Assembly: GCA_964492745.1 (NCBI GenBank)
Contig: CAZBLT010000004.1
Location: 28,668-92,667 of the forward strand
Origin: an uncultured Anaerolineaceae bacterium
GTDB lineage: Bacteria; Chloroflexota; Anaerolineae; Anaerolineales; E44-bin32
Direction of reading: 5' to 3'
Length of the DNA stretch: 64,000 nt
Made by a program: the position numbers and the translations under genes. Positions within the stretch are counted from its first letter, which is position 1, and the number at the start of each line of letters is the position of its first letter. Below are positions 5,323-34,732 of this stretch, in pieces. A model generated the notes under the pieces. The model was not told the DNA's origin and made no database searches. It saw only the letters and a program-made list of their open reading frames with translations.

Positions 5323-6600
5323 ATGTTCCGATCGACGCCGCCGCTTAGGCTCCTTGCCCGTATCGGGAGCGTGATCTTCGCGCTGGCGCTGACGCTCGCC
5401 TTGGGCGGCAGCACGCTGGCGGTCCAAACGCTTGTTGACCGCATCGAGCGGTTGACTTTTCCGGTCGAATTCGATTTTCTCACCTGGACGGTCGCGGCCC
5501 TGGCTGAAAAGACAGGCGCGGCCGGACTAAGGGCGACGGATTACCTCGCGGATGCCGACCGACGGCGAGCGGTCCTGGAGTACCTGGACATGCTCGCGAG
5601 CGTGCATCAGTTGCGCGCCGACCTGGAATCCACTCTGGCAGATCCCACACGTGAGAACCACGAAGAGGACGCGGCCGATATCCGCATCCGGCTTGGGCGG
5701 GAGGCGCGGCGACTGGACCGGCTGCGGCCGCTGGCGGAGAGCGTGCTCCAGGAGCAGGTGGCGCTGGCCTTGGGAGACTCGGGTCTCGGACTGGCAGGCG
5801 TGCCTTTCCCTCCTGTGGTCTTTGCCTTCGCGCCGCTGCCTTCCTCGCTCATCGTCTCGCCCAGAGAAATCATCCGCCAGGAGGCGAGCATTTCCCTGAA
5901 GGTCGATCTGACCCTGGAGCAGAAGATCCAGCTCGAGCGCAGGGTTGAGCAGGCGCTCAATGTCTCCGCGCTTGTGGTTCCCGTTGGAGGGCTTGGTACC
6001 TATCCCACGATGGTGCAGGAGAGCGCGGATTTGCGCTGGATTGCCGAAGTAGTCGCCCATGAATGGACTCATAATTACTTGGCGCTGCGCCCGCTTGGCT
6101 GGCGGTACGGGGCCAGCCCCGAGATGCGGACCATCAATGAGACGGTGGCCTCGTTGATCGGGGAGGCCATTGCCCGCCGAGTGTTGGAGACCTACTATCC
6201 AGAACGGCTGCCGCCGCCTCCTGCGCCGGTCTCGCCGGCAGGACCCCCGACGCAAGAGGAGCCAGCCACCTTCGACTTCCGGGCTGAGATGCGGGAGACG
6301 CGGCTTCGCGTGGACGCGCTGCTGGCGGAGGGGAAGATCGAGGAGGCGGAACGCTACATGGAAGCCAGGCGGCTGGTCTTCTGGGAGCATGGCTATCACA
6401 TCCGCAGGCTCAATCAGGCCTACTTCGCCTTTCATGGCGCCTATGCGGATGAGCCCGGAGGTCCGGCAGGGGATGATCCTGTAGGGGAGGCTGTACGTCA
6501 GCTTTGGGCTCGCATCGCCTCCCCGGCCGAATTCCTGCGCCTGGTATCAAGGGTCCGCAGCTTCGAGGAATTGCAGGGTCTGCTGATTAACCTTCCGTGA
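5323..6600 (+). CDS. Membrane-anchored hypothetical protein with an HExxH zinc-metallopeptidase-like motif
   Basis: N-terminal TM helix (IGSVIFALALTLALGG) and the motif VAHEWTHNYL. The start is ambiguous: TTG at 5299 or ATG at 5323. No RBS precedes 5323. Confidence 0.6.
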   Translation: MFRSTPPLRLLARIGSVIFALALTLALGGSTLAVQTLVDRIERLTFPVEFDFLTWTVAALAEKTGAAGLRATDYLADADRRRAVLEYLDMLASVHQLRADLESTLADPTRENHEEDAADIRIRLGREARRLDRLRPLAESVLQEQVALALGDSGLGLAGVPFPPVVFAFAPLPSSLIVSPREIIRQEASISLKVDLTLEQKIQLERRVEQALNVSALVVPVGGLGTYPTMVQESADLRWIAEVVAHEWTHNYLALRPLGWRYGASPEMRTINETVASLIGEAIARRVLETYYPERLPPPPAPVSPAGPPTQEEPATFDFRAEMRETRLRVDALLAEGKIEEAERYMEARRLVFWEHGYHIRRLNQAYFAFHGAYADEPGGPAGDDPVGEAVRQLWARIASPAEFLRLVSRVRSFEELQGLLINLP

Positions 6601-12088: not shown

Positions 12089-15000
12089 CTACTCGGTGGG
12101 CGAGGGGCTAGGCGTCGTGGAGGGGATCGGCGTCAGCGTGACCGTGGGCGTTGGCGTCGCCGTGGGCGTGAGAGTCTGAGTCGGCGTTGCGGTTGGCGTG
12201 GGCGTGGGCGTGGGAAGCAGGATATTCAGGTGCAGGTCGACCGAGGCCTTGCCGCCACGCTCGCTGCGCACGGTAAGCCGCAAGGTCACCTGGCCATTCG
12301 GAACTTCCTGCAGGTCCCAATCGAGGAGCTTGCCCGGCTGACGGAGGGGATCCCGGCCGCTGGCGATATCAGGCCAATGCCGGGGCTGCGATCCGGTCCC
12401 TAATTCTAGAATCCAATCTTTGAATTCAGAGGTGGCCGCCGCGCGGGCGAAGATCGCCACTGGACTGGTGGTGATCGTCGCGCCCTCTGGCGGGCTTGTG
12501 AAGGCCAAAATGGGGCGGGGGCTATCGGCGTTGCAGGTGGCCTTGGGGATGAAGAAGAGCGGATCTTCATCGAATCCCATCTCCTCCGCCCAGGCCTTGC
12601 CGGCAGGGTCCTCCCGGAGCCATCTTCGGGCCCAGGGGTCATCAACATTGAGGCCCAGTTTCTCCACCGCATACTCTGAGCATTCCGTGGACGCCAACTC
12701 CAGGGCGAAGCTATCCACCCAGACCTTCTTCCACAGGTCTTGCTCCTTGGGGAGAGGTGGCTGATCGCTGGCGAAGATCTCGGTCTTCTGCCGGGGGCAC
12801 CATTCGGATGGCTCCGTGCCGGAGATGGCACAGATAATGCGGTCGACGACGCCCGCCGGGCGCACCGTGGGGCTGGGAATGCCCCCGGTGAGCCGATCCT
12901 GCGCGAATTGCATGAACTGATTCCAGATGGGCGCAGCGCCAGTCAGGCCCGAGGTGTTGACCATGGGCGTGTAATCCGCGTTGCCCACCCAGACGCCCAC
13001 GGCGACGTCGGGCGTATAGCCCAGGGTCCAGTTATCGCGGAAGTCGTTGGTGGTCCCAGTCTTGGCAGCGGCCTTGAAGGGCAGCCGCAGCGCCGAATTG
13101 GGCCCGAAAGCCGGGGTGCGGGCCTCGTTATCGCTGAGGATGTCGGTGATGAGGTAGGCGTGTTCGGGCCGGATGACTTGCTCGCCCTGGGCCTCATGCT
13201 CGTAGACAATTGCGCCCTCGCGATCCTCGATGCGCAGGATGCCTGTGGGGGCAACCCGAAGACCGTTATTCGCCAGGGTTGCATAGACGGAGGTCAATTC
13301 CAGGAGGGTCACGTCTCCGCCGCCGAGGGTGAGAGAGAGCCCGTAGTCCTGGCGGTCCAGGGTGGTGATGCCCACGCGGCGGGCAAAGGGGATCAGGCCC
13401 TCCTCGGCGGGCGTCAGCGGGTCATCGTAAATGCCCACATAGGCCAGGGCTTTCACGGCGGGCACGTTGTAAGAATTGGCCAGCGCCGACCGCACCGTCA
13501 CGGGACCGTGGAAACGGTTATCGTAATTGACGGGCTTATAGGGCGGCCGGAGGTCACTGGGATCCCCCGAGGGCGGGAATTCGGAGGGCACATCCCAGAT
13601 CAAGGTGGCAGGCGTCCAGCCCTTCTCGAACGCGGCGGTGTAGGTGAGGGGCTTGATGGAGGAGCCAGGCTGCCGGGGCCGGATGGCCATGTTTACCTGG
13701 CCATCGATGGCTTCGTTGTAGAAATCCGCCGAGCCCACCATGGCGAGAATCTCGCCTGTAGAGGGCCGGATGGCGACCAGCGCGCCGTTTGTGGCTCTCT
13801 TCTCGGCCAGCGCATCCACCTGCTGGCGCACGATTTCCTGGGCCTGCTGCTGCAGGACGGGGTCCAGACTTGTGTGGACGGTGAAACCGGAGCGATAGAT
13901 CGTCTGGGGGTCGAACAGGCTTTCGAGCTCGGCGCGAATGAAGTGGACCCAGTGCGGGAAGCGGATCTGGATATCCGGAGTCTGGAATTCATAGGCGGCG
14001 ATTTCCGCTGCGGCCATGCCAGCTTCTTCAGCCGAAATGCAAATCGGCTGTTGGGCGTTGCTGACGTAGATGCAGCCCTGCTCCCGGCTGGTCTCAACCA
14101 TCAAGGTCAGCACCTGCCGGTGACGGGCGAGCGTGGCCTGGCGGTTGGTGTAGATGTCGTAGACCGAGGGTGCCTGGACGAGCCCGGCCAGGAAGGAAGC
14201 CTGGGCGAGGGTCAGCTTATCGGCGGTGGTGTTGAAGTAGGTCTCCGCGGCGGCCTCCACGCCGTAGGCGAGATTGCCGAAGTAGCTCTGGTTCAGGTAG
14301 AGCTCGAGGATCTCGTCCTTCGAGTAGCGACGTGTGATCTCCGCCGCCAGAAGGACCTCGCGGGTCTTGCGCCGCGCCGTACGGCGAGCGCGCTCCTCGG
14401 GCGAGAAGAGCAGATTGCGGGCGATCTGCTGGGTGATGGTGGAGGCTCCAGAGACGACATCCCCCTGGGTGTAGTTCTGCCACACGGCGCGCAGGATGGC
14501 CAGCAAGTCAAACCCCGGGTGACTGTAAAACTGGGAGTCCTCGGTGGCCAGGATGGCGGCCACCATGTACGGCGAGATGCGATCCAGCGGAACGTAGGTT
14601 CTGCGGCCGGCGTTGGGGTCGAGAATCTCGTAGAGCAAGTTCCCCTGCCGGTCCAGGATGCGTGTGGTTTCAAACTGGGCGGCATGCTGCTGGAGGTCTT
14701 CCACGGGAGGAAGCGTGGCCGCCAGCGCGTAATACTGGTAGATGCCAAATGTGATAACGCCGATCAGCAGTGCGGCGGACAGAAACAAGCCCAGGATCCC
14801 CATACGGAGCAGGCAGCCCCCGCAGCCGCTCCAGGTCGAAGGGCGCAGGATTTGCATGCCTTCCAGGGACCTGGGGATATGGAAGGCTGCAGGCACCACC
14901 CGGGTGCCGTCCAGGTCGTTCTCCGGGACGGGCCGGGGCAACTCCCGATCCACGGGCGGCTCGGAAGGGGGCGCGGGCTGGGGTTGAGAGTGATCGGTCT

Positions 15001-15223
15001 TAGACGGTCGTTTCGCGGATGTTTGTAGAGGCTCAGGATGTTCTTGGGTGCCGGAATCCAGCGGGAGGGTATGATCCTCAGCCCTGAGAAGGCGCCGGAG
15101 CCGCTCCTTGGGGTCCAGCGCGGGCTCCCCCGGGCCGCGGGTGCCTTCCGGACGCTCCCCGCTCTCCGGCTGTTCGGGATCGAAAGCCCCGCCCAGGGGT
15201 CGATCGTCGGCCGATTGGCTCAT
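12089..15223 (-). CDS. Class A penicillin-binding protein (GT51 transglycosylase + transpeptidase), with long N- and C-terminal extensions
   Basis: GT51 motifs are EDSQFYSHPGFD, GASTITQQ and RKTRE. Transpeptidase motifs are SSIKP, SYN and KTGTTN. The protein is 1044 aa. Confidence 0.9.
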   Translation of the reverse strand: MSQSADDRPLGGAFDPEQPESGERPEGTRGPGEPALDPKERLRRLLRAEDHTLPLDSGTQEHPEPLQTSAKRPSKTDHSQPQPAPPSEPPVDRELPRPVPENDLDGTRVVPAAFHIPRSLEGMQILRPSTWSGCGGCLLRMGILGLFLSAALLIGVITFGIYQYYALAATLPPVEDLQQHAAQFETTRILDRQGNLLYEILDPNAGRRTYVPLDRISPYMVAAILATEDSQFYSHPGFDLLAILRAVWQNYTQGDVVSGASTITQQIARNLLFSPEERARRTARRKTREVLLAAEITRRYSKDEILELYLNQSYFGNLAYGVEAAAETYFNTTADKLTLAQASFLAGLVQAPSVYDIYTNRQATLARHRQVLTLMVETSREQGCIYVSNAQQPICISAEEAGMAAAEIAAYEFQTPDIQIRFPHWVHFIRAELESLFDPQTIYRSGFTVHTSLDPVLQQQAQEIVRQQVDALAEKRATNGALVAIRPSTGEILAMVGSADFYNEAIDGQVNMAIRPRQPGSSIKPLTYTAAFEKGWTPATLIWDVPSEFPPSGDPSDLRPPYKPVNYDNRFHGPVTVRSALANSYNVPAVKALAYVGIYDDPLTPAEEGLIPFARRVGITTLDRQDYGLSLTLGGGDVTLLELTSVYATLANNGLRVAPTGILRIEDREGAIVYEHEAQGEQVIRPEHAYLITDILSDNEARTPAFGPNSALRLPFKAAAKTGTTNDFRDNWTLGYTPDVAVGVWVGNADYTPMVNTSGLTGAAPIWNQFMQFAQDRLTGGIPSPTVRPAGVVDRIICAISGTEPSEWCPRQKTEIFASDQPPLPKEQDLWKKVWVDSFALELASTECSEYAVEKLGLNVDDPWARRWLREDPAGKAWAEEMGFDEDPLFFIPKATCNADSPRPILAFTSPPEGATITTSPVAIFARAAATSEFKDWILELGTGSQPRHWPDIASGRDPLRQPGKLLDWDLQEVPNGQVTLRLTVRSERGGKASVDLHLNILLPTPTPTPTATPTQTLTPTATPTPTVTLTPIPSTTPSPSPTE

Positions 15224-15706: not shown

Positions 15707-15789
15707 GATTTCTCTCCTCGGACGGCGCCGCCATTCTAGCACGCTGGACCGCTGGGGACCCCAAGACGGTTGTGCTGTACAATCACGGC

Positions 15790-18168
15790 ATGCGACGCTG
15801 GAATCTCTCGTTAGATGAACCCCTATCGCTGCGAATCGCCGCGGATGCCCGCTGGACGCAAATCGAGCCGGGATACGATCAAATCTGGGAGTTGGCACCC
15901 GGCGAGGAGCAGCCACGGGCCATGTCGCTGCGCACGACCTATGGCCAGCGTGTGTCCCTCATGCACATTTTCCCTGGCTTTCGGTTGGGAGATCAACTCG
16001 TTCTGGATCCAGAAAGGTTTTTCCGGCTCCCGCGAATTCATACCTTGCTGCCCGACTACATCGAGTGGAGCGCGGAGCCCTTCGAGGGCCTCTGGGTTGT
16101 GAGTGAGGCCTGGGCCTCCGCGGCGCAGGTTCTCGAGGGCGCGTACAGTGTTCTGAACACCACGGACGAGCCACTCGATACCGGCTTGCGGCTTCATGCC
16201 GTCCTCCAGCCCGTGGGCGGTCAAGCCGCGATGGGGGAAAGAGAGATGGATGGCGTTACGGTGCTGGTGGGGCGGGCTAGCGATCTGGAGCCTGTGCTTT
16301 TCCTGAGTGGAGGAGGCGTGCTGGCTGCAACGCCCTATCCAGCGCTGTCTGTGCAGGCTCGCCTTCAGCCGGGCCTTTCGCGCAGGTGGCGCTGGGTGCA
16401 TTGCGGTGGGCGTGAAGCAGCCCAATGCTTTGCGGTTTGCCGTGAGCGCGTGCAGGTGGCATGGGAGCCACAAATCGCCCGCCTGAAGTTGAGGAATAGC
16501 ACCCTGATCGATATTCGTACCGGGGATGATCGGCGGGACGTGGCGCTCTGGCTTGCCCAGCGCGATACGCTGCAGTGCCTGGCAAGCCCCGCGCGGCATG
16601 CCCGCAAGCTCTGGGCCAGGCCTCACCGCACCATCAGGGATGGCCACGCCGAACATCGACGCCCCAGGCCGTTTGATTCGCCAGTCGAAGCCCGCGCACA
16701 GGTCTACGCCGCTTTGCAATTCCTTCCAGGCCAACCTGAGCTCGCCCAGGGAATCCTTGAGAACCTACTCGCAAATCAGGGCGCATCAGCCGGCCGCGAC
16801 TCACAGGCAAGCGGGTTGGAGACCGGGCCAATCGGCCCGCCCTATCTCTGCTACCTGGCACGAGTCCTCTACGAGCGCACCGAAGATGAACACTTCCTGC
16901 AGCTGCTTTTCCCCAAGCTCCGGGATTGTCTCGAGTCCTGGTTCGGCCCGCGACGAGATCGAGATGGCGATGGGATTCCTGAGTGGGATCATGTTCTTCA
17001 GGCTGGCTTTGAAGATTGGCCGACCTTCTCCCCCTTCTTTGCATGGACGCAGGGCTACGAGATATCCAAGGCCGAGACCATCGATCTGGCCGCTGCGCTC
17101 TACCGTGAGTGCAAGGACCTCTTGGCGTTGGCCGAGGTGGTTGGGGAATCGAAGGCATGCAAGCAGTTCGAAGCCCGGGCCGAGAGGCTGAAGGAGATGG
17201 TAGAGGCTTCTTGGTCTCCTCGGAAGGCCTCTTTTCAGCATCGGGATCGTGATCTGCATAGCACTCCAAAAGGTGGCCTGCTTGCGCGGGGCCGGGGATC
17301 CTTCCGCAAAGAAGTGGGGCGGGAATTCGAAGTGCCCGTGCGCGCCCTGCTTCGGATCCTGGGTCCGGATGGTGCGATCCCAAAATTCCGGATCCGGGTG
17401 GGTTCGAGGGGCTTGAAGGGCCGCGCCCGGGTCGAACGCTACACCGAGCGACACTTTCGATGGTTCTGGGGCGTCGGCAGCCTGACCAGCGAGAAGCCCA
17501 GCAAAGCGATCGAATACATCGAGGTGGATGGGTTGCCTGCTGGATTCCGGGTCGAATTACATGCCGGAGATCTGGCACGCGAGGATGTCACAACCTTGCT
17601 TCCGCTGTGGGCCGGCATGATGGATAGCCATAGGGCGGAGACACTCGTCCAGAGGACCCTGCTGGATGAGAAACGCTTTTGGCGGCGCAGCGGCATTCCC
17701 AGTTGCTCGGCTCGAGATAGGGCCTACGCGCCGGACGGCGAAGGGGGAAGCGGGCCTGTGGATATGTTCTGGAATGCACTGCTGGGGGAGGGCCTGCTCG
17801 CCTGCGAGGCGCGCGGGGAGGCGGCTGAGCTCGCGGATCGGCTGATTCAGGCTGGGATGGGTGCCCTGCAAGAAGAGGGCGGTTTCTGCGCCCGTTACCA
17901 TGCGGACGAACCCCTGGGAGTGGGGGAGGTTGGGTCTCTCACCGGCTCGCCGCCCCTGAAGCTCTTCCTGGATGTCCTGGGCGTGGAGCTGATGAGTCCC
18001 CGAAAAGTGCGCCTGCTGCCCGGCAACCCTTTTCCCTATCCGGTTCGACTGATATGGCGCGGACTCGAGGTACGCAGCGAGGCGGACCTTGTTTGGATTC
18101 GATTCCCCGACGGGGAGGAAGTCGAGATTTCTAAGAGGGGCAGGCATATCGTGGAGCAGATTGGATAA
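15790..18168 (+). CDS. Hypothetical protein, probable (alpha/alpha)6-barrel glycoside hydrolase-like (GH63/glycogen-debranching-like)
   Basis: About 790 aa. The DRDGDGIPEWDH and WPTFSPFFAWTQGYE segments resemble GH63/GH15-clan catalytic-domain loops. The family assignment is tentative. Confidence 0.6.
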   Translation: MRRWNLSLDEPLSLRIAADARWTQIEPGYDQIWELAPGEEQPRAMSLRTTYGQRVSLMHIFPGFRLGDQLVLDPERFFRLPRIHTLLPDYIEWSAEPFEGLWVVSEAWASAAQVLEGAYSVLNTTDEPLDTGLRLHAVLQPVGGQAAMGEREMDGVTVLVGRASDLEPVLFLSGGGVLAATPYPALSVQARLQPGLSRRWRWVHCGGREAAQCFAVCRERVQVAWEPQIARLKLRNSTLIDIRTGDDRRDVALWLAQRDTLQCLASPARHARKLWARPHRTIRDGHAEHRRPRPFDSPVEARAQVYAALQFLPGQPELAQGILENLLANQGASAGRDSQASGLETGPIGPPYLCYLARVLYERTEDEHFLQLLFPKLRDCLESWFGPRRDRDGDGIPEWDHVLQAGFEDWPTFSPFFAWTQGYEISKAETIDLAAALYRECKDLLALAEVVGESKACKQFEARAERLKEMVEASWSPRKASFQHRDRDLHSTPKGGLLARGRGSFRKEVGREFEVPVRALLRILGPDGAIPKFRIRVGSRGLKGRARVERYTERHFRWFWGVGSLTSEKPSKAIEYIEVDGLPAGFRVELHAGDLAREDVTTLLPLWAGMMDSHRAETLVQRTLLDEKRFWRRSGIPSCSARDRAYAPDGEGGSGPVDMFWNALLGEGLLACEARGEAAELADRLIQAGMGALQEEGGFCARYHADEPLGVGEVGSLTGSPPLKLFLDVLGVELMSPRKVRLLPGNPFPYPVRLIWRGLEVRSEADLVWIRFPDGEEVEISKRGRHIVEQIG

Positions 18169-18263: not shown

Positions 18264-19478
18264 ATGATGACTTTCCTGGCAGTCGAACCCTCCTCGAATC
18301 TTCTCCCGCTGTTATTGCTTCTTGCAATCCTGCTCGTGGCTGCCAAGCTCTTGGGGGCCTTGTCCGTGCGGCTGGGCCAGCCGGCGGTGCTGGGAGAGTT
18401 GCTCGCAGGGTTGCTTCTGGGCCCTAGCCTCATCGATGTGCTGACGCTGCCGGTCTTGCGTTCGCCGGGACTCTCGGAATCGCTGCGGGCTTTCGCGGAT
18501 ATCGGAGTGCTTTGCCTGATGTTCGCGGCCGGACTGGAGACCGAACTAGACGACCTGCGCCGCGCCGGTCGGCCGGCTTTGCTGGGGGGAATCCTGGGCG
18601 TGGCGGCCCCGATCCTCTTGGGCGGGGCTGCAGGCTGGGCATTCGGGCAGGCTCCAGAGCAGGCGCTCTTCCTGGGGATCGTGCTCAGCGCTACCAGCGT
18701 GAGCATCTCGGCACAGACGCTGTTGGAACTCGGACGTCTGCGCTCACGCGAAGGGGTGGCCCTGCTGGGTGCGGCCGTTATCGATGACATCCTGGTCATC
18801 ATGATCCTCTCTGGTTTCGTCGTGGCTGTTGACCGATCAGGGTCATTTGGGCTGGTCCTGCTTCAGTTGGGCCGAATGTTCTTGGTCCTGGCGGTCTCGT
18901 TTGGTGCGGCAATCTACCTGCTGCCTTATGTGATCGGATGGACCTCGCGTTTGCGAGTTAGCGAGGGCATGTTGGCGATTTCGCTGGCGCTCATGCTACT
19001 CTTTGCCTGGGCGTCGGAGCATCTCGGAAGCGTGGCGGCCATCACGGGCGCCTTCATTACAGGCTTGGGCATGCGGCGCAGCCGACATCGGGAGGAGCTC
19101 GAAGAAGGTCTGCATCGGATCAGCTATGGCTTTTTCGTGCCCCTATTCTTGGTCAACATCGGATTGGGGGCGGACGTGGGGGCCTTGGCGCCGCGAGAGG
19201 CGATCTTCGCGCTCATCATCATCGCTGTGGCGGTGCTTTCGAAGATGATTGGAAGCGGGTTGGGGGCCTGGTTGGGCGGATTCGATCGGGACGCGGCGTT
19301 GCGTATGGGGCTGGGGATGATCTCTCGGGGAGAGGTGGGCCTGATCGTGGCCGGGATCGGCCTGGCTGAAGGCTTGATCTCCAGAGAACTGTTCGCGGGG
19401 ATTGTGCTCATGGTCCTAGCTACGACGCTTCTGACCCCGATCCTGCTCCGGCGGGCCTACGCTCATCTGGAGGTTTGA
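18264..19478 (+). CDS. Cation:proton antiporter, CPA2 family (NapA/KefB-like membrane domain, no RCK domain)
   Basis: 404 aa with about 12 TM helices. LGQPAVLGELLAGLLLGPS...FAAGLETELDDL...ISRGEVGLIVA is typical of the Na_H_Exchanger/CPA2 family. Confidence 0.85.
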   Translation: MMTFLAVEPSSNLLPLLLLLAILLVAAKLLGALSVRLGQPAVLGELLAGLLLGPSLIDVLTLPVLRSPGLSESLRAFADIGVLCLMFAAGLETELDDLRRAGRPALLGGILGVAAPILLGGAAGWAFGQAPEQALFLGIVLSATSVSISAQTLLELGRLRSREGVALLGAAVIDDILVIMILSGFVVAVDRSGSFGLVLLQLGRMFLVLAVSFGAAIYLLPYVIGWTSRLRVSEGMLAISLALMLLFAWASEHLGSVAAITGAFITGLGMRRSRHREELEEGLHRISYGFFVPLFLVNIGLGADVGALAPREAIFALIIIAVAVLSKMIGSGLGAWLGGFDRDAALRMGLGMISRGEVGLIVAGIGLAEGLISRELFAGIVLMVLATTLLTPILLRRAYAHLEV

Positions 19479-19479
19479 A

Positions 19480-19857
19480 ATGGCGCAAATGGTGATCCTG
19501 GTTATCCACAACCCAGGTAAAGTGGATGCAGTCGTGAGCCGCTGGGTAGAGATGGGCGTTTCCGGGCTGACGATTCTGGACAGCAGCGGCTGGACCCAGC
19601 AGGCAGGGCGGCGAGAGATACGCGATGACTTGCCGCTCTTTCCCTCGCTGCGCAAGGTCCTGCGTACGGTCGAAGAACGTAATCGGACGATCTTCAGCGT
19701 CGTCCCGGACGACTATGACCTGGACTCGCTGGTCACGGCAACCGAGACTATCCTGGGCAGGCTGGATGACCCGGCCACGGGCATTCTGTTCACCTTGCCA
19801 GTCACACGCAGCCATGGGCTGCGTCCCAAGGGGTCCCCGGGAGAGATGAGTTCATGA
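19480..19857 (+). CDS. PII-like signal-transduction protein (GlnB-fold, non-canonical)
   Basis: 125 aa. MVILVIHNPGKVDAVVSRWVEMGVSGLTILDSSGW...RTIFSVVPDDYDLDSLV...GILFTLPV aligns by eye with the beta-alpha-beta/T-loop/beta-alpha-beta layout of PII proteins. It starts 2 nt after the CPA2 stop, with GGAGG 7 nt upstream. Confidence 0.7.
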   Translation: MAQMVILVIHNPGKVDAVVSRWVEMGVSGLTILDSSGWTQQAGRREIRDDLPLFPSLRKVLRTVEERNRTIFSVVPDDYDLDSLVTATETILGRLDDPATGILFTLPVTRSHGLRPKGSPGEMSS

Positions 19858-19887
19858 GCGCTTCCATTGCCTTCGTGAGGAACCGGT

Positions 19888-21774
19888 ATGAGTGAGTTGC
19901 TCCAAGCAGAATCCCTGATACTGGAACTCTTTCTAATCGTGGCCCTTGTCGCTATCGTGGTCCGCAGGTTCCAGTTCCCGTACACGGTCGCTCTGGTGCT
20001 CGCCGGCCTGGCGCTTTCTTTCCGGTCCGGTCTAGAGATCGAACTCACCTCCGAGCTGATCCTATTCCTGCTGCTGCCACCGCTGATATTCGAGGCTGCC
20101 TTCCATCTAAATCTGCGGCAACTGCGGGACAATCTGGCCACGATCGGCCTGCTGGCCATCCCGGGGGTGATCCTCAACATGCTAGTGGTGGGGGGCATCC
20201 TGTCCTACGGTGCCGGCCTGTCGCTGGCAGTTGCGCTGGTCTTTGGCGCGCTGATCGCGGCGACGGATCCGGTCTCGGTCATCGCAATCTTTCGCAGGCT
20301 TGGTGCACCCAAGCGGCTCGAGGTGCTGCTCGAGGCAGAAAGCCTGTTCAACGATGGCACGGCGGTGGTGATCTTCGGCCTGGCGCTCGAAGTGTTGCAG
20401 CTGGGCAAGTTCAACTTCAGCGAAGCGCTGGTGGAATTCGTACGAACAGCCGGCGGGGGCCTGATCGTGGGAATTGTGCTGGGATGGCTGGTTTCATGGC
20501 TGATCGGCCGCATCGATGATCACCTGATCGAGACCATGCTCACCACCGTCCTGGCCTTTGGATCTTATCTCGTGGCCGAGCAGTTCCATTTCAGCGGGGT
20601 GTTGGCGGTGGTGGCCGCCGGGCTGATGAGCGGCAATATGGGCGAGCGGGCGATGTCGCCCACAACCCGCATCGCGCTTGTGAACCTCTGGGAATATTTC
20701 GCCTTTCTGGCGAATTCGGCGGTCTTCCTCATGATCGGGCTGGATGTCGAGGTGATCTCGCTGGTTTCAAAATGGCGGCTGGTTCTTTGGGCCATCGGCG
20801 CAGTGCTCGTGAGCCGGGCTTTGAGCATCTATGGCCTCGCCCGGCTGGGAAATCCGATCCCTGGCAGATGGCGCCACGTGCTCTTTTGGGGAGGGTTGCG
20901 GGGCGCGATCGCGCTCGCTTTGGCCCTGAGCCTGCCGAACGATTTCGGCCCGGACCGTCGCACACTGATCGAAATGACCTATGGGGTGGTGCTCTTCAGT
21001 CTCGTTGTGCAAGGGCTCTCGATGAACGGCCTCCTGAACCGCTTGGGGATAACCGAGAAGTCCGAGGAGCAAATAGAGTATGAGCGCCGGCACGCGCGCG
21101 CAATGGCCGTCCGCGCCGGCGTGGAGCACATCCGCCGCCTAAGCGAGGAGGGCCTGATCTCGGCCCACAGCTGGCGCCGCATCGAGCCCATGCTGCAGCA
21201 AAGGGTCGAGGGCCTGATTGGCGCCGTTCAGGAGGTGTTGCACGAATCGCCCTACCTGGAGGTCGAGGAGATGGTCGCCGCTCGGCGGGAGATGCTCCGG
21301 GCGCAACGGAGCATGCTCAGCAATATGCGGACCAGCGGCGCCCTCTCCCAAGAGATTTACGAGGAATTGGTTGCGGAGGTTGATACCGCCCTCAGAAGTG
21401 ATGAGGAGGCCTGGGCGCCTTATGCTCGGCAGACGGGCGAGGGGGAGGACATTTGTCATCTCCTGATGGCCGTTGTCCAGGCCCGCGATCTCGAATCGGC
21501 CTCGAATGCCCTCGCCATTCGGGGGGTGCGGGTGACTCGCATCGAGAGCCGAGGGGGCTTCTTGCGCACGCGCAATCACGTGTTGCTGATGGGCATCCCC
21601 CGCGGCCGGTTGCCGGCGACGCTTGAGGCGCTCGAAAGCTCCTGCCGGCAGCGGGTGGAATACCTGCCGCTCCCTGCGGGCGAAGAGGGAAAGGAGGCGC
21701 TGGAGGCGCGCGGCGTGGAGCTCAACGCGGCCGTGACCTTCGCCTTCGACGTGGAACGTTGTGAGGTGATCTGA
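19888..21774 (+). CDS. Na+(K+)/H+ antiporter, CPA1/NhaP type, with a C-terminal DarA/PstA (DUF970)-like domain
   Basis: 628 aa. The membrane domain (ATDPVSV, ESLFNDG, GGLRGAIALALA) is NhaP-like. A helical cytoplasmic linker follows, then a roughly 105-aa C-terminal domain paralogous to the next gene. Confidence 0.85.
   Translation: MSELLQAESLILELFLIVALVAIVVRRFQFPYTVALVLAGLALSFRSGLEIELTSELILFLLLPPLIFEAAFHLNLRQLRDNLATIGLLAIPGVILNMLVVGGILSYGAGLSLAVALVFGALIAATDPVSVIAIFRRLGAPKRLEVLLEAESLFNDGTAVVIFGLALEVLQLGKFNFSEALVEFVRTAGGGLIVGIVLGWLVSWLIGRIDDHLIETMLTTVLAFGSYLVAEQFHFSGVLAVVAAGLMSGNMGERAMSPTTRIALVNLWEYFAFLANSAVFLMIGLDVEVISLVSKWRLVLWAIGAVLVSRALSIYGLARLGNPIPGRWRHVLFWGGLRGAIALALALSLPNDFGPDRRTLIEMTYGVVLFSLVVQGLSMNGLLNRLGITEKSEEQIEYERRHARAMAVRAGVEHIRRLSEEGLISAHSWRRIEPMLQQRVEGLIGAVQEVLHESPYLEVEEMVAARREMLRAQRSMLSNMRTSGALSQEIYEELVAEVDTALRSDEEAWAPYARQTGEGEDICHLLMAVVQARDLESASNALAIRGVRVTRIESRGGFLRTRNHVLLMGIPRGRLPATLEALESSCRQRVEYLPLPAGEEGKEALEARGVELNAAVTFAFDVERCEVI
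21457..21771 (+). other. DarA/PstA (DUF970)-like PII-superfamily domain fused to the CPA1 antiporter
   Basis: HLLMAVVQARDLESASNALAIRGVRVTRIESRGGFLRTRNHVLLMGI...AVTFAFDVERCEVI aligns with KLLLTIIRAKDTEAVMDHLVENDFRVTHIASTGGFLRKGNSTLLIGT...ATVFVLNVDQFSAL of the downstream gene. Confidence 0.7.
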
Positions 21775-21776
21775 TC

Positions 21777-22040
21777 ATGAAGCTCTTGCTGACCATCATT
21801 CGCGCCAAGGATACCGAGGCCGTCATGGACCACCTCGTCGAGAACGATTTCCGGGTGACCCATATCGCCTCGACCGGGGGGTTCTTGCGCAAAGGGAACT
21901 CGACGCTGCTGATTGGGACGGATGAGGCGCGGGTTGAAGAAGCCCTGGAGGTCATTCGCACGGCCACAAGCCCGGCCGAGGAGGGGGAACGCAGGGCGAC
22001 TGTGTTTGTCTTGAACGTCGATCAGTTCTCGGCTCTTTAG
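21777..22040 (+). CDS. DarA/PstA-like PII-family protein (DUF970; cyclic-di-AMP receptor family)
   Basis: 87 aa. FRVT.IASTGGFLRKGN.T.LIG and ATVFVL.VD.F are hallmark segments of B. subtilis DarA (YaaQ) and S. aureus PstA. The gene starts 2 nt after the antiporter stop and has a GAGGTGA RBS. Confidence 0.8.
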   Translation: MKLLLTIIRAKDTEAVMDHLVENDFRVTHIASTGGFLRKGNSTLLIGTDEARVEEALEVIRTATSPAEEGERRATVFVLNVDQFSAL

Positions 22041-22618
22041 GGTGCCGGAGGATCTGGAGGCGCACTCTCGCTTTGCGCGAGGTATTCCTGGCGCAGCAGG
22101 CCATAGATTTCCAGATCCTCGAACTGGCCCCACTTCTGAATATGATGCCTCAGATGGCCCTCATGTCTCATGCCGAGCTTCTGCATAACGCGACCGGAGG
22201 CCGGATTGCGTGAGAAGTGCTGGGCATAGATGCGCTCAAGGCCCAGGGTTCGGAATCCATATTCCAACAGGGCGCGAGCGGCTTCGGTGCAGTAGCCCTG
22301 GCCCCAATAGGCTTTCCCCACCCAATAGCCGAGCTCTCCCCGTCTATGCTCGGGGGAGAGCACCAACCCGCAGGCGCCAAGCAAGGCCCCGTCCTCTTTC
22401 CGGACGACCGCCAGCACGACTTCCCTGCGTTGCGCAAAGTTCTCAGCGTGGGTACCTATCCACGCCAGGGCATCCGCCAGTGTGTAGGGATGCGGGATGT
22501 TGAGCGTGGTATAGGCGACCGCTGCATCCCCGGCAAGGTTGGCAATGGCCTGGGCGTCCCCGGCTTCGAAGGGGCGCAAGAGCAGGCGCCTGGTTTCGAG
22601 TGTGGGCCGGTTGGTCAT
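22037..22618 (-). CDS. GNAT family N-acetyltransferase (RimJ/RimL-like)
   Basis: MTNRPTLETRRLLLRPFEAGDAQ...WVGKAYWGQGYCTEAARALLEYGF fits the family. The start is trimmed to the ATG at 22618. Confidence 0.8.
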   Translation of the reverse strand: MTNRPTLETRRLLLRPFEAGDAQAIANLAGDAAVAYTTLNIPHPYTLADALAWIGTHAENFAQRREVVLAVVRKEDGALLGACGLVLSPEHRRGELGYWVGKAYWGQGYCTEAARALLEYGFRTLGLERIYAQHFSRNPASGRVMQKLGMRHEGHLRHHIQKWGQFEDLEIYGLLRQEYLAQSESAPPDPPAP

Positions 22619-22640
22619 TGGTGGGCCTTTCGGATCAATC

Positions 22641-23006
22641 TCATTCCGCTCCCTGGCCGGCAACTTCTTCATAGGCTGTGTAGAGAATGCGATCTGGGTC
22701 GCCCTGAAGCAGAGGCGCAAGGAAATCCTCTTCCCAGACGCGCCAGTTCGGTGGGTAGGCCTCGGGACCGAAGGGGCGATCTGGGGGACCCCATAGCGCT
22801 TCCCAGGCTTGCCGGGAGGGGTAGACCCAGACGGCTGCTGCCCGGCCACTCCGGGCCCCCTTCAAGCCCACGAGAAGTGAATAGCGCTCCAATCCTGGAA
22901 GCCTAAACAGCCCTGCGGCCTCGGCCTGCCGAAAGGCTTCGATGAGCATTTGGAGGGTGGTGCCCTCCCTGAGCTCATATTCATGGATCGAAATGATGCG
23001 TGCCAT
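22641..23006 (-). CDS. Hypothetical protein (121 aa)
   Basis: The start is trimmed to the ATG at 23006 (MARIISIHEYELREG...). Codon usage is consistent with neighbouring genes. I do not recognise a family. Confidence 0.5.
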   Translation of the reverse strand: MARIISIHEYELREGTTLQMLIEAFRQAEAAGLFRLPGLERYSLLVGLKGARSGRAAAVWVYPSRQAWEALWGPPDRPFGPEAYPPNWRVWEEDFLAPLLQGDPDRILYTAYEEVAGQGAE

Positions 23007-23050
23007 GGTTTCGGGCTCCTGGTTGTCGCCTCGCAGAAGCAATCCTGAGG

Positions 23051-23644
23051 TCAGGCAGAAGGGGATTGCTGATCTGGCTCGCGGTGGAAGCTCTCGACTT
23101 GATAGGTATAGATCTCGACATCGCCCTGCTTCCAGGCGCCAGCGGGGAGGTATGCCTTCTGGCAGAGCAGGTCGAGGAACTGGCGGGGGTCCGGTATCTT
23201 TTCCCACACCTGTGGGAGGAAAGTGCCGCGGTTCAGCCCGCGCGCAAGGATGACTCCGTCGATGCCCGGGCGCAGGAGTGAAGGGATCTGCTCAGGTGTT
23301 TCATATTCCAGGGGATCGGGCTGAGTGAGGACCGAGACTTCTACGGTCGTGTAGGGAACTTCCTCAGGCCTCAGCGGCGGGAAGCGGGGATCCTCCCTGG
23401 CTGCCGCCATCGCCCGCAGGACGACATCTTGCGCCAGAGGGAGCTGCAGTTTGATGGTGCCGATGCAGCCTCGGAGGACCCCATTCTGGGTGAGGGTCAC
23501 GAAGCTCGCACCCGGTTCGCGGAGCCGCTGCGTGAGTTGGCTGAGATCAGGTTCAGGAGCGGGCTGGTTCTGGGCGGCTGCCTGAACAGCCGCGCAGGCC
23601 AGGTCGAGCAGGACGCGCTTCTCTTCTTCCGTCAAGGTTGACAT
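23051..23644 (-). CDS. AMMECR1 domain protein (AmmeMemoRadiSam system protein A-like)
   Basis: 197 aa. GASFVTLTQNGVLRGCIGT and the RFPPL...E..V.VSVL motifs are typical of AMMECR1. Confidence 0.85.
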   Translation of the reverse strand: MSTLTEEEKRVLLDLACAAVQAAAQNQPAPEPDLSQLTQRLREPGASFVTLTQNGVLRGCIGTIKLQLPLAQDVVLRAMAAAREDPRFPPLRPEEVPYTTVEVSVLTQPDPLEYETPEQIPSLLRPGIDGVILARGLNRGTFLPQVWEKIPDPRQFLDLLCQKAYLPAGAWKQGDVEIYTYQVESFHREPDQQSPSA

Positions 23645-34574: not shown

Positions 34575-34647
34575 GGGCCTGTGGCGCAGTTGGGAGCGCG
34601 CATCAATCGCACTGATGAGGTCGCGGGTTCGAATCCCGCCAGGTCCA
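34575..34647 (+). tRNA. tRNA-Ala (anticodon CGC)
   Basis: Manual cloverleaf: acceptor GGGCCTG/CAGGTCC with the G3:U70 Ala identity pair, D-arm GCGC-AGTTGGGA-GCGC, anticodon arm CATCA-ATCGCAC-TGATG and T-arm GCGGG-TTCGAAT-CCCGC. The discriminator is A and no CCA is encoded. Confidence 0.9.
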
Positions 34648-34656
34648 CTCGAGCAA

Positions 34657-34732
34657 GGGCCCATGGCGCAGCTGGGAGCGCGTCTCAATGGCATTGAGAA
34701 GGTCGTGGGTTCGAATCCCACTGGGTCCACCA
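34657..34732 (+). tRNA. tRNA-Ala (anticodon GGC), CCA encoded
   Basis: Acceptor GGGCCCA/TGGGTCC with G3:U70, anticodon arm TCTCA-ATGGCAT-TGAGA and T-arm GTGGG-TTCGAAT-CCCAC, followed by ACCA. Confidence 0.9.

Follow-up and report, generated by a model that had tools for sequence, protein, structure and literature searches.

Two juxtaposed cation/proton antiporter modules, each with its own PII-type partner, in an uncultured Anaerolineaceae bacterium

Four genes on the forward strand of a 64,000-nucleotide (nt) stretch of DNA from an uncultured Anaerolineaceae bacterium (GenBank assembly GCA_964492745.1, contig CAZBLT010000004.1, positions 28,668 to 92,667; hereafter the window) encode two cation/proton antiporters together with three modules of the PII superfamily, and our analysis indicates that this locus (18264-22040 of the window) is two self-contained antiporter-regulator modules and not one system. 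The first module consists of g1 (18264-19478), a NapA-like CPA2 cation/proton antiporter of 404 amino acids (aa), and g2 (19480-19857), a PII-like protein of 125 aa that is the partner of g1. The second consists of g3 (19888-21774; 628 aa), a CPA1 antiporter that ends in a DarA/PstA domain of a type that we designate L, and of g4 (21777-22040; 87 aa), a DarA protein of a type that we designate S. A preliminary description of the window had listed the four co-directional genes in this order, which open reading frames, Pfam and NCBIfam matches confirmed, and had assigned each antiporter its own PII-type partner, as we also found. It had furthermore joined all four genes into a single unit, which did not hold, given that about 60 of 80 CPA2 and PII-like loci have no DarA gene nearby and that L and S occur free of an antiporter in 64 of 80 loci; its observation therefore stands, and its interpretation does so in part, with two modules instead of one. 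The explanation that we favor, and that we regard as reasonably probable, is one of two adjacent modules, CPA2 with the PII-like protein and CPA1-L with S, the latter gated by cyclic di-adenosine monophosphate (c-di-AMP).

The genes are closely spaced, with 1 nt between g1 and g2, 30 nt between g2 and g3 and 2 nt between g3 and g4, so that of the two gaps previously given as 2 nt the last was correct and the first was one nucleotide too long. Shine-Dalgarno-like motifs precede g2 (GGAGG), g3 (GAGGAA) and g4 (GAGGTGA), lying either in the 3' end of the preceding gene or in the short spacer. A scan for promoters and terminators returned no promoter-like site and a single terminator-like site, located inside g3, which was fewer than in shuffled sequence. 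No second copy of L/S or of the PII-like gene was found in the 64-kb window by tblastn.

The pairing of g1 with g2 is conserved in related genomes. Scanning one genome per species, with the alignment of the CPA2-linked close group of g2 homologs as the query, yielded 170 loci, almost all of them from Anaerolineae and other Chloroflexota; the closest match came from an uncultured Anaerolineaceae metagenome-assembled genome (95% identity), and the cultured Bellilinea caldifistulae was also among them. Of these 170 loci 80 were retrieved, and all neighborhood counts for the first module refer to them. In 79 of the 80 species genomes the PII-like gene has a g1-like CPA2 gene directly upstream, at identities of 38-95%, with a median gap of 4 nt, a gap of 20 nt or less in 54 cases and an overlap in 26 pairs; the sole exception (L047), which carries a g2-like gene at 6001-6351 with no CPA2 gene upstream, held up on recheck. 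Homologs of the window's flanking genes were present in just 15 of the 80 loci, the other 65 lacking the upstream neighbors that encode a penicillin-binding protein (PBP), MaoC and a glycoside hydrolase (GH), and CPA2 and the PII-like gene are therefore conserved as a pair and not as passengers of local synteny. More distant members of the g2 family (35-45% identity) head operons in which the PII-like gene is followed by PTS_EIIA_2 and Mrp genes, the latter encoding a multisubunit cation/proton antiporter (Mnh). This was the case in five out of five sampled contigs (L004, L005, L006, L169 and L171, from Aerophobetes, KSB3, Fermentibacterales and others), and a family member at 39% identity also sits behind a CPA2 gene.

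L and S form the second conserved pair, for which neighborhoods were counted in the best 80 genome loci matching S. An L-type DarA gene is located directly upstream of S in 78 of them (76 detected by BLASTP and two more by relaxed tblastn), and among the 76 L sequences 64 are free-standing proteins (median 114 aa) and 12 form the C-terminal domain of a CPA1 antiporter. The gap from L to S measures 2 nt in 43 loci and 1 nt in 10, and the genes overlap in 13. S also follows the CPA1-L fusion in nine out of ten loci that had not been selected through S (eight found via g2, plus L172). In a neighbor-joining tree all 81 S sequences form one clade apart from L, which makes S and L old paralogs. Two genomes (L141 and L149) carry, one after the other, CPA1-L, S and another pair of L and S in which L is free; each L thus keeps its own S. 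At a further locus (L130), CPA1-L is followed by two S-like genes, and in all three of these loci the DarA pair has evidently been duplicated locally.

The two modules are separable. One genome (L007; 59% identity) has CPA2 and the PII-like gene at the same syntenic position with no CPA1-L or S, another (L172) has the GH gene, CPA1-L and S without CPA2 and the PII-like gene, and in two more (L012 and L019) the two halves lie about 1.8 kb apart. The full four-gene order occurs in at least nine species-level genomes, with g2 identities down to 49%, and seven further genomes (L016, L021-L024, L055 and L158) have CPA2, the PII-like gene, a free L and S in a row. Free L-S pairs occupy the same conserved neighborhood as the cluster in the window: in 31 of the 64 free-pair loci (L096-L168), L is preceded by a co-directional gene for an MGH1-like GH, a mannosylglycerate-hydrolase-like protein, the gene ending 11-193 nt before L in 30 of the 31 and 2029 nt before it in L130, and AMMECR1 lies downstream in 46 of the 64 (52 of 80 overall). 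Taken together, L007, L172 and the seven genomes with a free L indicate that the cluster consists of separable modules that were juxtaposed at an old L-S locus.

The PII character of g2 is only marginally visible to Pfam, whose P-II model gives 24.8 bits against a gathering score of 25.0. An AlphaFold2 (AF2) model built from 35 homologs reached a mean predicted local distance difference test (pLDDT) score of 77.6, with values above 90 in its beta-alpha-beta-beta-alpha-beta core, and the top 50 Foldseek matches of this model in the Protein Data Bank (PDB) were all PII proteins (GlnB/GlnK) with a probability of 1.0, so that the PII fold of g2 is confirmed at the level of the predicted structure. 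All three PII-superfamily assignments of the preliminary description withstood such scrutiny, those of g2 and g3 through AF2 and Foldseek and that of g4 through its match to the Pfam family CdAMP_rec. Altogether 161 relatives of g2 were detectable in the protein collection, and the invariant or nearly invariant features of the family are a GxTxLDSxG strand, a P-L-F core of the T-loop and a P-x-T-G-I-L-F B-loop. In g2 itself the T-loop motif reads R-D-D-L-P-L-F-P (residues 48-55, nt 19621-19644, forward strand); over the complete family alignment P-L-F alone shows no or almost no variation, while R48, D50, L51 and P55 are invariant only in the CPA2-linked close group. Canonical PII proteins bind Mg-ATP and 2-oxoglutarate through a TGxxGDGKI motif and a Q39/K58 pair (PMC4316997). 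The g2 family has neither of them, the position of K58 being aligned with T70, which is why we call its members PII-like and antiporter-associated and not canonical PII proteins. An identity as GlnK, whose defining motifs are absent, was rejected, and against the NCBIfam equivalog models for GlnB/GlnK g2 scores 14-15 bits, with cut-offs of 181-202. Nothing ties g2 to a second messenger; the canonical nucleotide-binding B-loop is missing, and the part of the earlier proposal that had placed this protein under such control is unsupported. In the literature we found no description of PII-like proteins paired with CPA2 or Mrp antiporters, and the g2 family looks like an undescribed, antiporter-dedicated family of PII-like proteins.

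Its partner g1 matches Pfam Na_H_Exchanger over residues 27-394 (E value 2.5e-63) and no further domain, which leaves no room for a fused RCK. The best NCBIfam match of g1 is the CPA2 model TIGR00932 (180.7 bits, under the cut-off of 238), and its nearest solved homolog is NapA of Thermus thermophilus (E value 1e-44), with which it shares an identical GAAVIDD segment; this segment contains the DD ion-binding motif, that is, the double-aspartate site of CPA2 antiporters (residues 174-175, nt 18783-18788, forward strand). From this family match, the similarity to NapA and the GAAVIDD segment, g1 is likely a CPA2 antiporter. No RCK/KTN match (TrkA_N/TrkA_C) was found in g1-g4 at E values up to 1, and the flanking genes encode a GH and a GNAT protein. 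The reported absence of RCK was thus correct, but to call this domain usual was an overstatement, since NapA is a CPA2 antiporter that naturally lacks RCK and its absence from g1 is therefore not unusual.

The antiporter of the second module, g3, is composed of three parts, all read from the forward strand. Its membrane domain (19888-21084) is of the CPA1 (a_cpa1/NhaP) type, matching Pfam Na_H_Exchanger over residues 16-384 (E value 3.9e-70) and TIGR00831 (a_cpa1) with 327.3 bits, above the cut-off of 279.6. It carries an ND motif at residues 155-156 (nt 20350-20355) within FNDG (residues 154-157), and the closest solved structures are those of SOS1, SLC9C1 and NHE1. A cytoplasmic helical domain follows (21085-21441, residues ~400-518), which is common to CPA1 relatives without DarA, as the TIGR00831 alignment reaches residue 500. 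The third part is the L domain (21451-21774, residues ~522-628), to which CdAMP_rec aligns at residues 525-624 (E value 6e-11; 42.9 bits, gathering score 27) and which retains a long B'-loop. A protein search with residues 400-628 returned only fragments shorter than 400 aa, which served as the alignment for modeling this region by AF2. In the model four long helices lead into a PII-like domain, and the PstA/DarA structures 3m05, 4rww, 4d3h and 4rle head the Foldseek matches of this domain, with target-normalized template modeling (TM) scores of 0.76-0.83.

HMMER, run exhaustively against 1.84 billion representatives, was used to collect full-length CPA1 relatives of g3. Among the 150 closest, the majority measure 510-560 aa and end near residue 505 of g3, past the helical domain, and only about five of the 150 reach the DarA domain. 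When ten long relatives were scanned, five had one or two cNMP_binding domains at the C-terminus (P0375, P0380, P0381, P0405 and P0406), one had a Usp domain at the same position (P0297), one had CdAMP_rec, and the extension of the remaining three had no Pfam match (P0331, P0344 and P0365). The subfamily of g3 thus repeatedly acquires nucleotide-sensing domains at this place, and its C-terminus seems to be a place where nucleotide sensors of the cNMP-binding, USP and DarA kinds can be exchanged for one another. The earlier idea of a nucleotide-sensing module standing in for an RCK-type regulator gains weight from these relatives. CPA1-L fusions have been retained through divergence down to 39-52% identity. 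Of the 13 fused L domains in a neighbor-joining tree, 11 make up a single clade and the other two, from L141 and L149, fall among free L; this placement may reflect a second fusion event, although a tree resting on about 100 residues carries little weight. A regulatory role of the fusion looks more plausible than an accident, and no published description of DarA fusions was found in the literature.

The second gene of this module, g4, matches CdAMP_rec with 82.2 bits (gathering score 27; E value 4e-23) over profile positions 1-63 of 109 only. It aligns with PstA residue for residue up to position 64 and then again over the last strand, and lacks about 22 residues of the B'-loop (PstA ~66-87; the whole loop corresponds to PstA ~67-94), which was proposed as the effector-binding loop in the structural work on PstA (PMC4316997). 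We considered a truncated pseudogene and rejected it, as g4 belongs to a conserved family of Anaerolineae proteins of 86-88 aa, comprising 156 protein clusters with at least 590 genome matches. With 85 bits for g4 and 47.4 bits for g3 against the DarA equivalog model NF058593 (cut-off 140 bits), both g4 and the L domain of g3 are, as judged by these scores, DarA homologs and not equivalogs. The stand-alone g4 is most plausibly interpreted as an obligate partner of the DarA domain that is fused to g3, and not as a second independent regulator.

In PstA, c-di-AMP is contacted by R26, T28 and G47 from one subunit and by F36, L37, N41 and F99 from its neighbor, and mutations in T28, N41 or GGFL abolish or weaken binding (PMC4316997). 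g4 retains R26, T28, ASTGGFL, N41, G47 and F77 (the equivalent of PstA F99), with the motif T28-T43 encoded at nt 21858-21905 of the forward strand, and equivalents of all these positions are present in the L domain of g3 (R548, T550, GGFL556-559, N563, G569 and F618). Across the families the two paralogs differ. R26 is found in 77 of 81 S sequences and is largely lost from L (R in 3 of 13 fused copies, and outside the four commonest residues in the 64 free ones), and T28 is present in 81 of 81 S against 56 of 77 L. ASTGGF is invariant in the 81 S sequences, as is V78, and in L the GGFL motif is largely retained (G34 in 76, G35 in 70, F36 in 65 and L37 in 72 of 77). N41 occurs in 35 of 81 S and 63 of 77 L, and the F99 equivalent in 80 of 81 S and 67 of 77 L. 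According to these family-level counts, only the interface between S, with its R/T face, and L, with its F/N face, has complete contacts. Such complementary half-sites would fit an L/S hetero-oligomer, as a consistent observation and not a proof. The B'-loop is strongly conserved in free L (consensus PlE-xaPlp-P-pTp, with some variable positions) and variable in fused L.

From these observations we infer a working scheme; the physical contacts, ligands, stoichiometry and direction of regulation that it contains all belong to this inference. Two modules would have come to adjoin in one Anaerolineales lineage. In the first, the electrogenic-type, NapA-like g1 would be co-translated with its dedicated g2, the trimer of which may dock on the cytoplasmic face of g1 via the conserved T-loop, by analogy with GlnK-AmtB and SbtB-SbtA. 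A small-molecule ligand would let g2 switch the exchange activity of g1 on or off, in a mode other than the canonical one with Mg-ATP and 2-oxoglutarate, and g2 would thereby serve g1 in the way that KhtT, an RCK subunit, serves KhtU. In the second module, the electroneutral-type CPA1 antiporter g3 bears L, the predicted sensor, after its helical domain, S would be translationally coupled to it, and S and L together would form a hetero-oligomeric PII-like body. The most economical stoichiometry would be a trimer made of the two L of an antiporter dimer and one S; closing the trimer in this way would explain why S always accompanies L. Binding of c-di-AMP at the L/S interfaces might then shift the position of the helical domain, through which K+(Na+)/H+ exchange of the CPA1 dimer would be gated.

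Several points weigh against this reading. CPA antiporters, CPA1 exchangers among them, are dimeric and PII-like proteins trimeric, whereas AmtB and SbtA, being trimers, match the symmetry of PII; a PII trimer on a dimeric CPA antiporter would imply a symmetry mismatch. At one locus (L173) no S lies within 4 kb of a CPA1-L fusion (1729-2484). In the window itself L retains R548 as well as T550, and the complementary trend of the families is therefore not visible in this copy. Matching clades of L and S were seen in the tree, but shared descent alone could explain them and we did not count them as evidence of interaction. Most L-S pairs lie behind an MGH1-like GH gene and away from antiporters, so their ancestral target may have been a different one. 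As regards the ligand, a regular-expression search for the motifs of diadenylate cyclases (DAC; G[TS]RH[RK][AS][AG] and HDGA) gave no credible match in the window and 168 loci (1.64 Mb), and no c-di-AMP (ydaO) riboswitch was found at the Rfam gathering threshold in the window and 12 related loci; both searches covered the window and related loci only, not the rest of the genome. The literature on diadenylate cyclases or c-di-AMP in Chloroflexi yielded nothing useful.

Apart from our favored explanation of two modules, the arrangement could be read as a single, integrated system, in which both antiporters would be gated by the three PII-fold modules together via a second messenger. Tight co-directional genes without a terminator-like site at any junction (the only one lying inside g3) would suit such a system, and so would the recurrence of the four-gene order and the seven additional genomes in which a free L takes the place of CPA1-L. 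We nonetheless consider it quite unlikely, because so many CPA2 and PII-like pairs do without DarA and L-S pairs without an antiporter, and because L172 and L007 hold one half each and the halves are set apart in L012 and L019. A different reading concerns the target of the second module: L/S would mainly regulate something else, such as the MGH1-like hydrolase and hence compatible-solute breakdown, and the CPA1 fusion would be a side branch or an insertion accident. The co-directional trio of GH, L and S, conserved in the 31 free-pair loci although the hydrolases concerned are just 22-37% identical to that of the window, speaks for it, and so does the B'-loop, which in free L is conserved as expected for an external target and in fused L is variable. 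However, fused copies persist at identities as low as 39-52%, the fusion may have had two origins (L141 and L149), and cNMP and USP sensors at the same position in relatives fit a regulatory role better than an accident. On balance we judge this reading unlikely, while a link between c-di-AMP receptors and compatible-solute breakdown is possible in view of the GH-L-S neighborhood.

The adjacency of the four genes might also have no functional meaning at all, with g2 an ordinary GlnB/GlnK nitrogen regulator and g4 a decaying fragment of DarA. Several homologs of g2 indeed carry the Joint Genome Institute (JGI) label 'nitrogen regulatory protein P-II', and the CdAMP_rec match of g4 stops at position 63. 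This is very improbable, though: beyond the missing motifs of g2 and a score of about 15 bits where the equivalog models demand 181-202, no amtB lies nearby and the gene is paired with CPA2 in 79 of 80 genomes, and the short form of g4 is a conserved family in which ASTGGF, T28 and V78 are invariant in 81 sequences. Returning to the two-module explanation, a bolder version of it, which we put forward tentatively and regard as rather doubtful, extends to DarA in general. DarA/PstA receptors would act directly on CPA1 K+(Na+)/H+ antiporters of the NhaP/NhaK type, with the Anaerolineae fusion as a Rosetta-stone record of this contact and NhaK-type antiporters as the target of DarA in Firmicutes; the Anaerolineae would have an obligate L/S heterotrimer of a loop-less S with two antiporter-borne L, and the g2 family would represent a new branch of PII-like proteins that regulates CPA2 and Mrp antiporters. 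In Bacillus subtilis without c-di-AMP, toxicity is relieved by gain-of-function nhaK (CPA1-type) or by loss of darA (PMC7857571). As a speculation, such genetics would be compatible with apo-DarA restraining a K+-exporting CPA1 antiporter.

The gene order in the window runs PBP, MaoC and GH, then CPA2, PII-like, CPA1-L and S, then GNAT and AMMECR1, and the antiporter genes here separate the MGH1-like GH from L-S. This GH gene, upstream of g1, lies at 15772-18168 on the forward strand (Pfam MGH1-like_GH, E value 1.7e-24). The PBP, encoded on the reverse strand at 12089-15223, is of class A, with Transgly and Transpeptidase domains; its C-terminal tail is of low complexity and rich in Pro/Thr (PTPTPTPTATPTQTLTPTATPTPT...), and its long N-terminal extension is rich in Pro/Glu. 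On the other side, a GNAT acetyltransferase open reading frame (22037-22849, reverse strand) converges on g4, the stop codons sharing 4 nt; since its Pfam domain begins only at residue 88, its true start is probably further downstream. It is partly overlapped by another open reading frame (22641-23207, reverse strand; 188 aa) with no Pfam match. Two adjoining tRNA genes at 34575-34729 on the forward strand are the sole Rfam matches in the 64 kb.

The interaction partner of DarA/PstA was still listed as not known in reviews of 2023 and 2026, despite extensive efforts (one of them PMC10636490). In Firmicutes there is one DarA protein, of 109 aa, whose gene pstA belongs to a tmk operon (PMC4475381), a context that gives no clue to its target. 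A natural fusion of DarA with an antiporter names a concrete candidate class of targets, one that agrees with the established role that c-di-AMP plays in potassium and osmotic homeostasis, and judging from the tandem pair of L and S, PII-like receptors for c-di-AMP may be heteromeric. In addition, the g2 family ties PII-like proteins to CPA2 and Mrp antiporters. DarA/PstA itself (PF06153), which in Firmicutes is a trimeric, PII-like receptor for c-di-AMP, is matched by g4 and by the L domain of g3 well above the Pfam threshold, and both share with it a T(K/H)(L/I)xxxGGFLxxGN(T/S)T-type motif and the equivalents of R26, T28, F36, L37, N41, G47 and F99; the difference is that two ancient tandem paralogs are found here, of which S lacks the B'-loop and L is, in the window, fused to CPA1.

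Among cation/proton antiporters, CpaA and KhtTU of Bacillus and Staphylococcus are stimulated by c-di-AMP via RCK_C and likewise combine a monovalent cation/proton antiporter with a cytoplasmic module, which is fused in CpaA and an adjacent subunit in KhtT-KhtU (PMC10636490). Theirs is, however, an RCK_C on a CPA2 antiporter, whereas the locus described here has no RCK, its putative c-di-AMP sensor is PII-like and sits on CPA1, and its CPA2 antiporter is paired with a different PII-like protein. With GlnK-AmtB and SbtB-SbtA the first module shares a small PII-fold protein encoded beside a co-conserved transporter, on which action through the T-loop would be expected; it differs in that the partner is a CPA2 or Mrp antiporter and not an ammonium or bicarbonate transporter, and in that g2 has a B-loop without GDGK and a T-loop motif of its own with an invariant P-L-F core. 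NifI1 and NifI2 are tandem, diverged PII paralogs that act as a heteromer, with ATP and 2-oxoglutarate as ligands and nitrogenase as the target. L and S resemble them as side-by-side paralogs thought to work together, their heteromer being a prediction, and belong to another PII subfamily. The eukaryotic exchangers SLC9C1 and SOS1 and the bacterial relatives P0375, P0380, P0381, P0405 and P0406 have the same succession of membrane domain, helical region and nucleotide sensor as g3, but the sensor in those proteins is a cyclic nucleotide-binding domain (CNBD), and in g3 it is a PII-like DarA domain whose partner subunit is the product of another gene. Measured against these systems, the locus is a new combination, in which a PII-like sensor is found instead of RCK, DarA is attached to CPA1 and has a loop-less DarA paralog as its obligate neighbor, and a distinct PII-like family is linked with CPA2 and Mrp antiporters.

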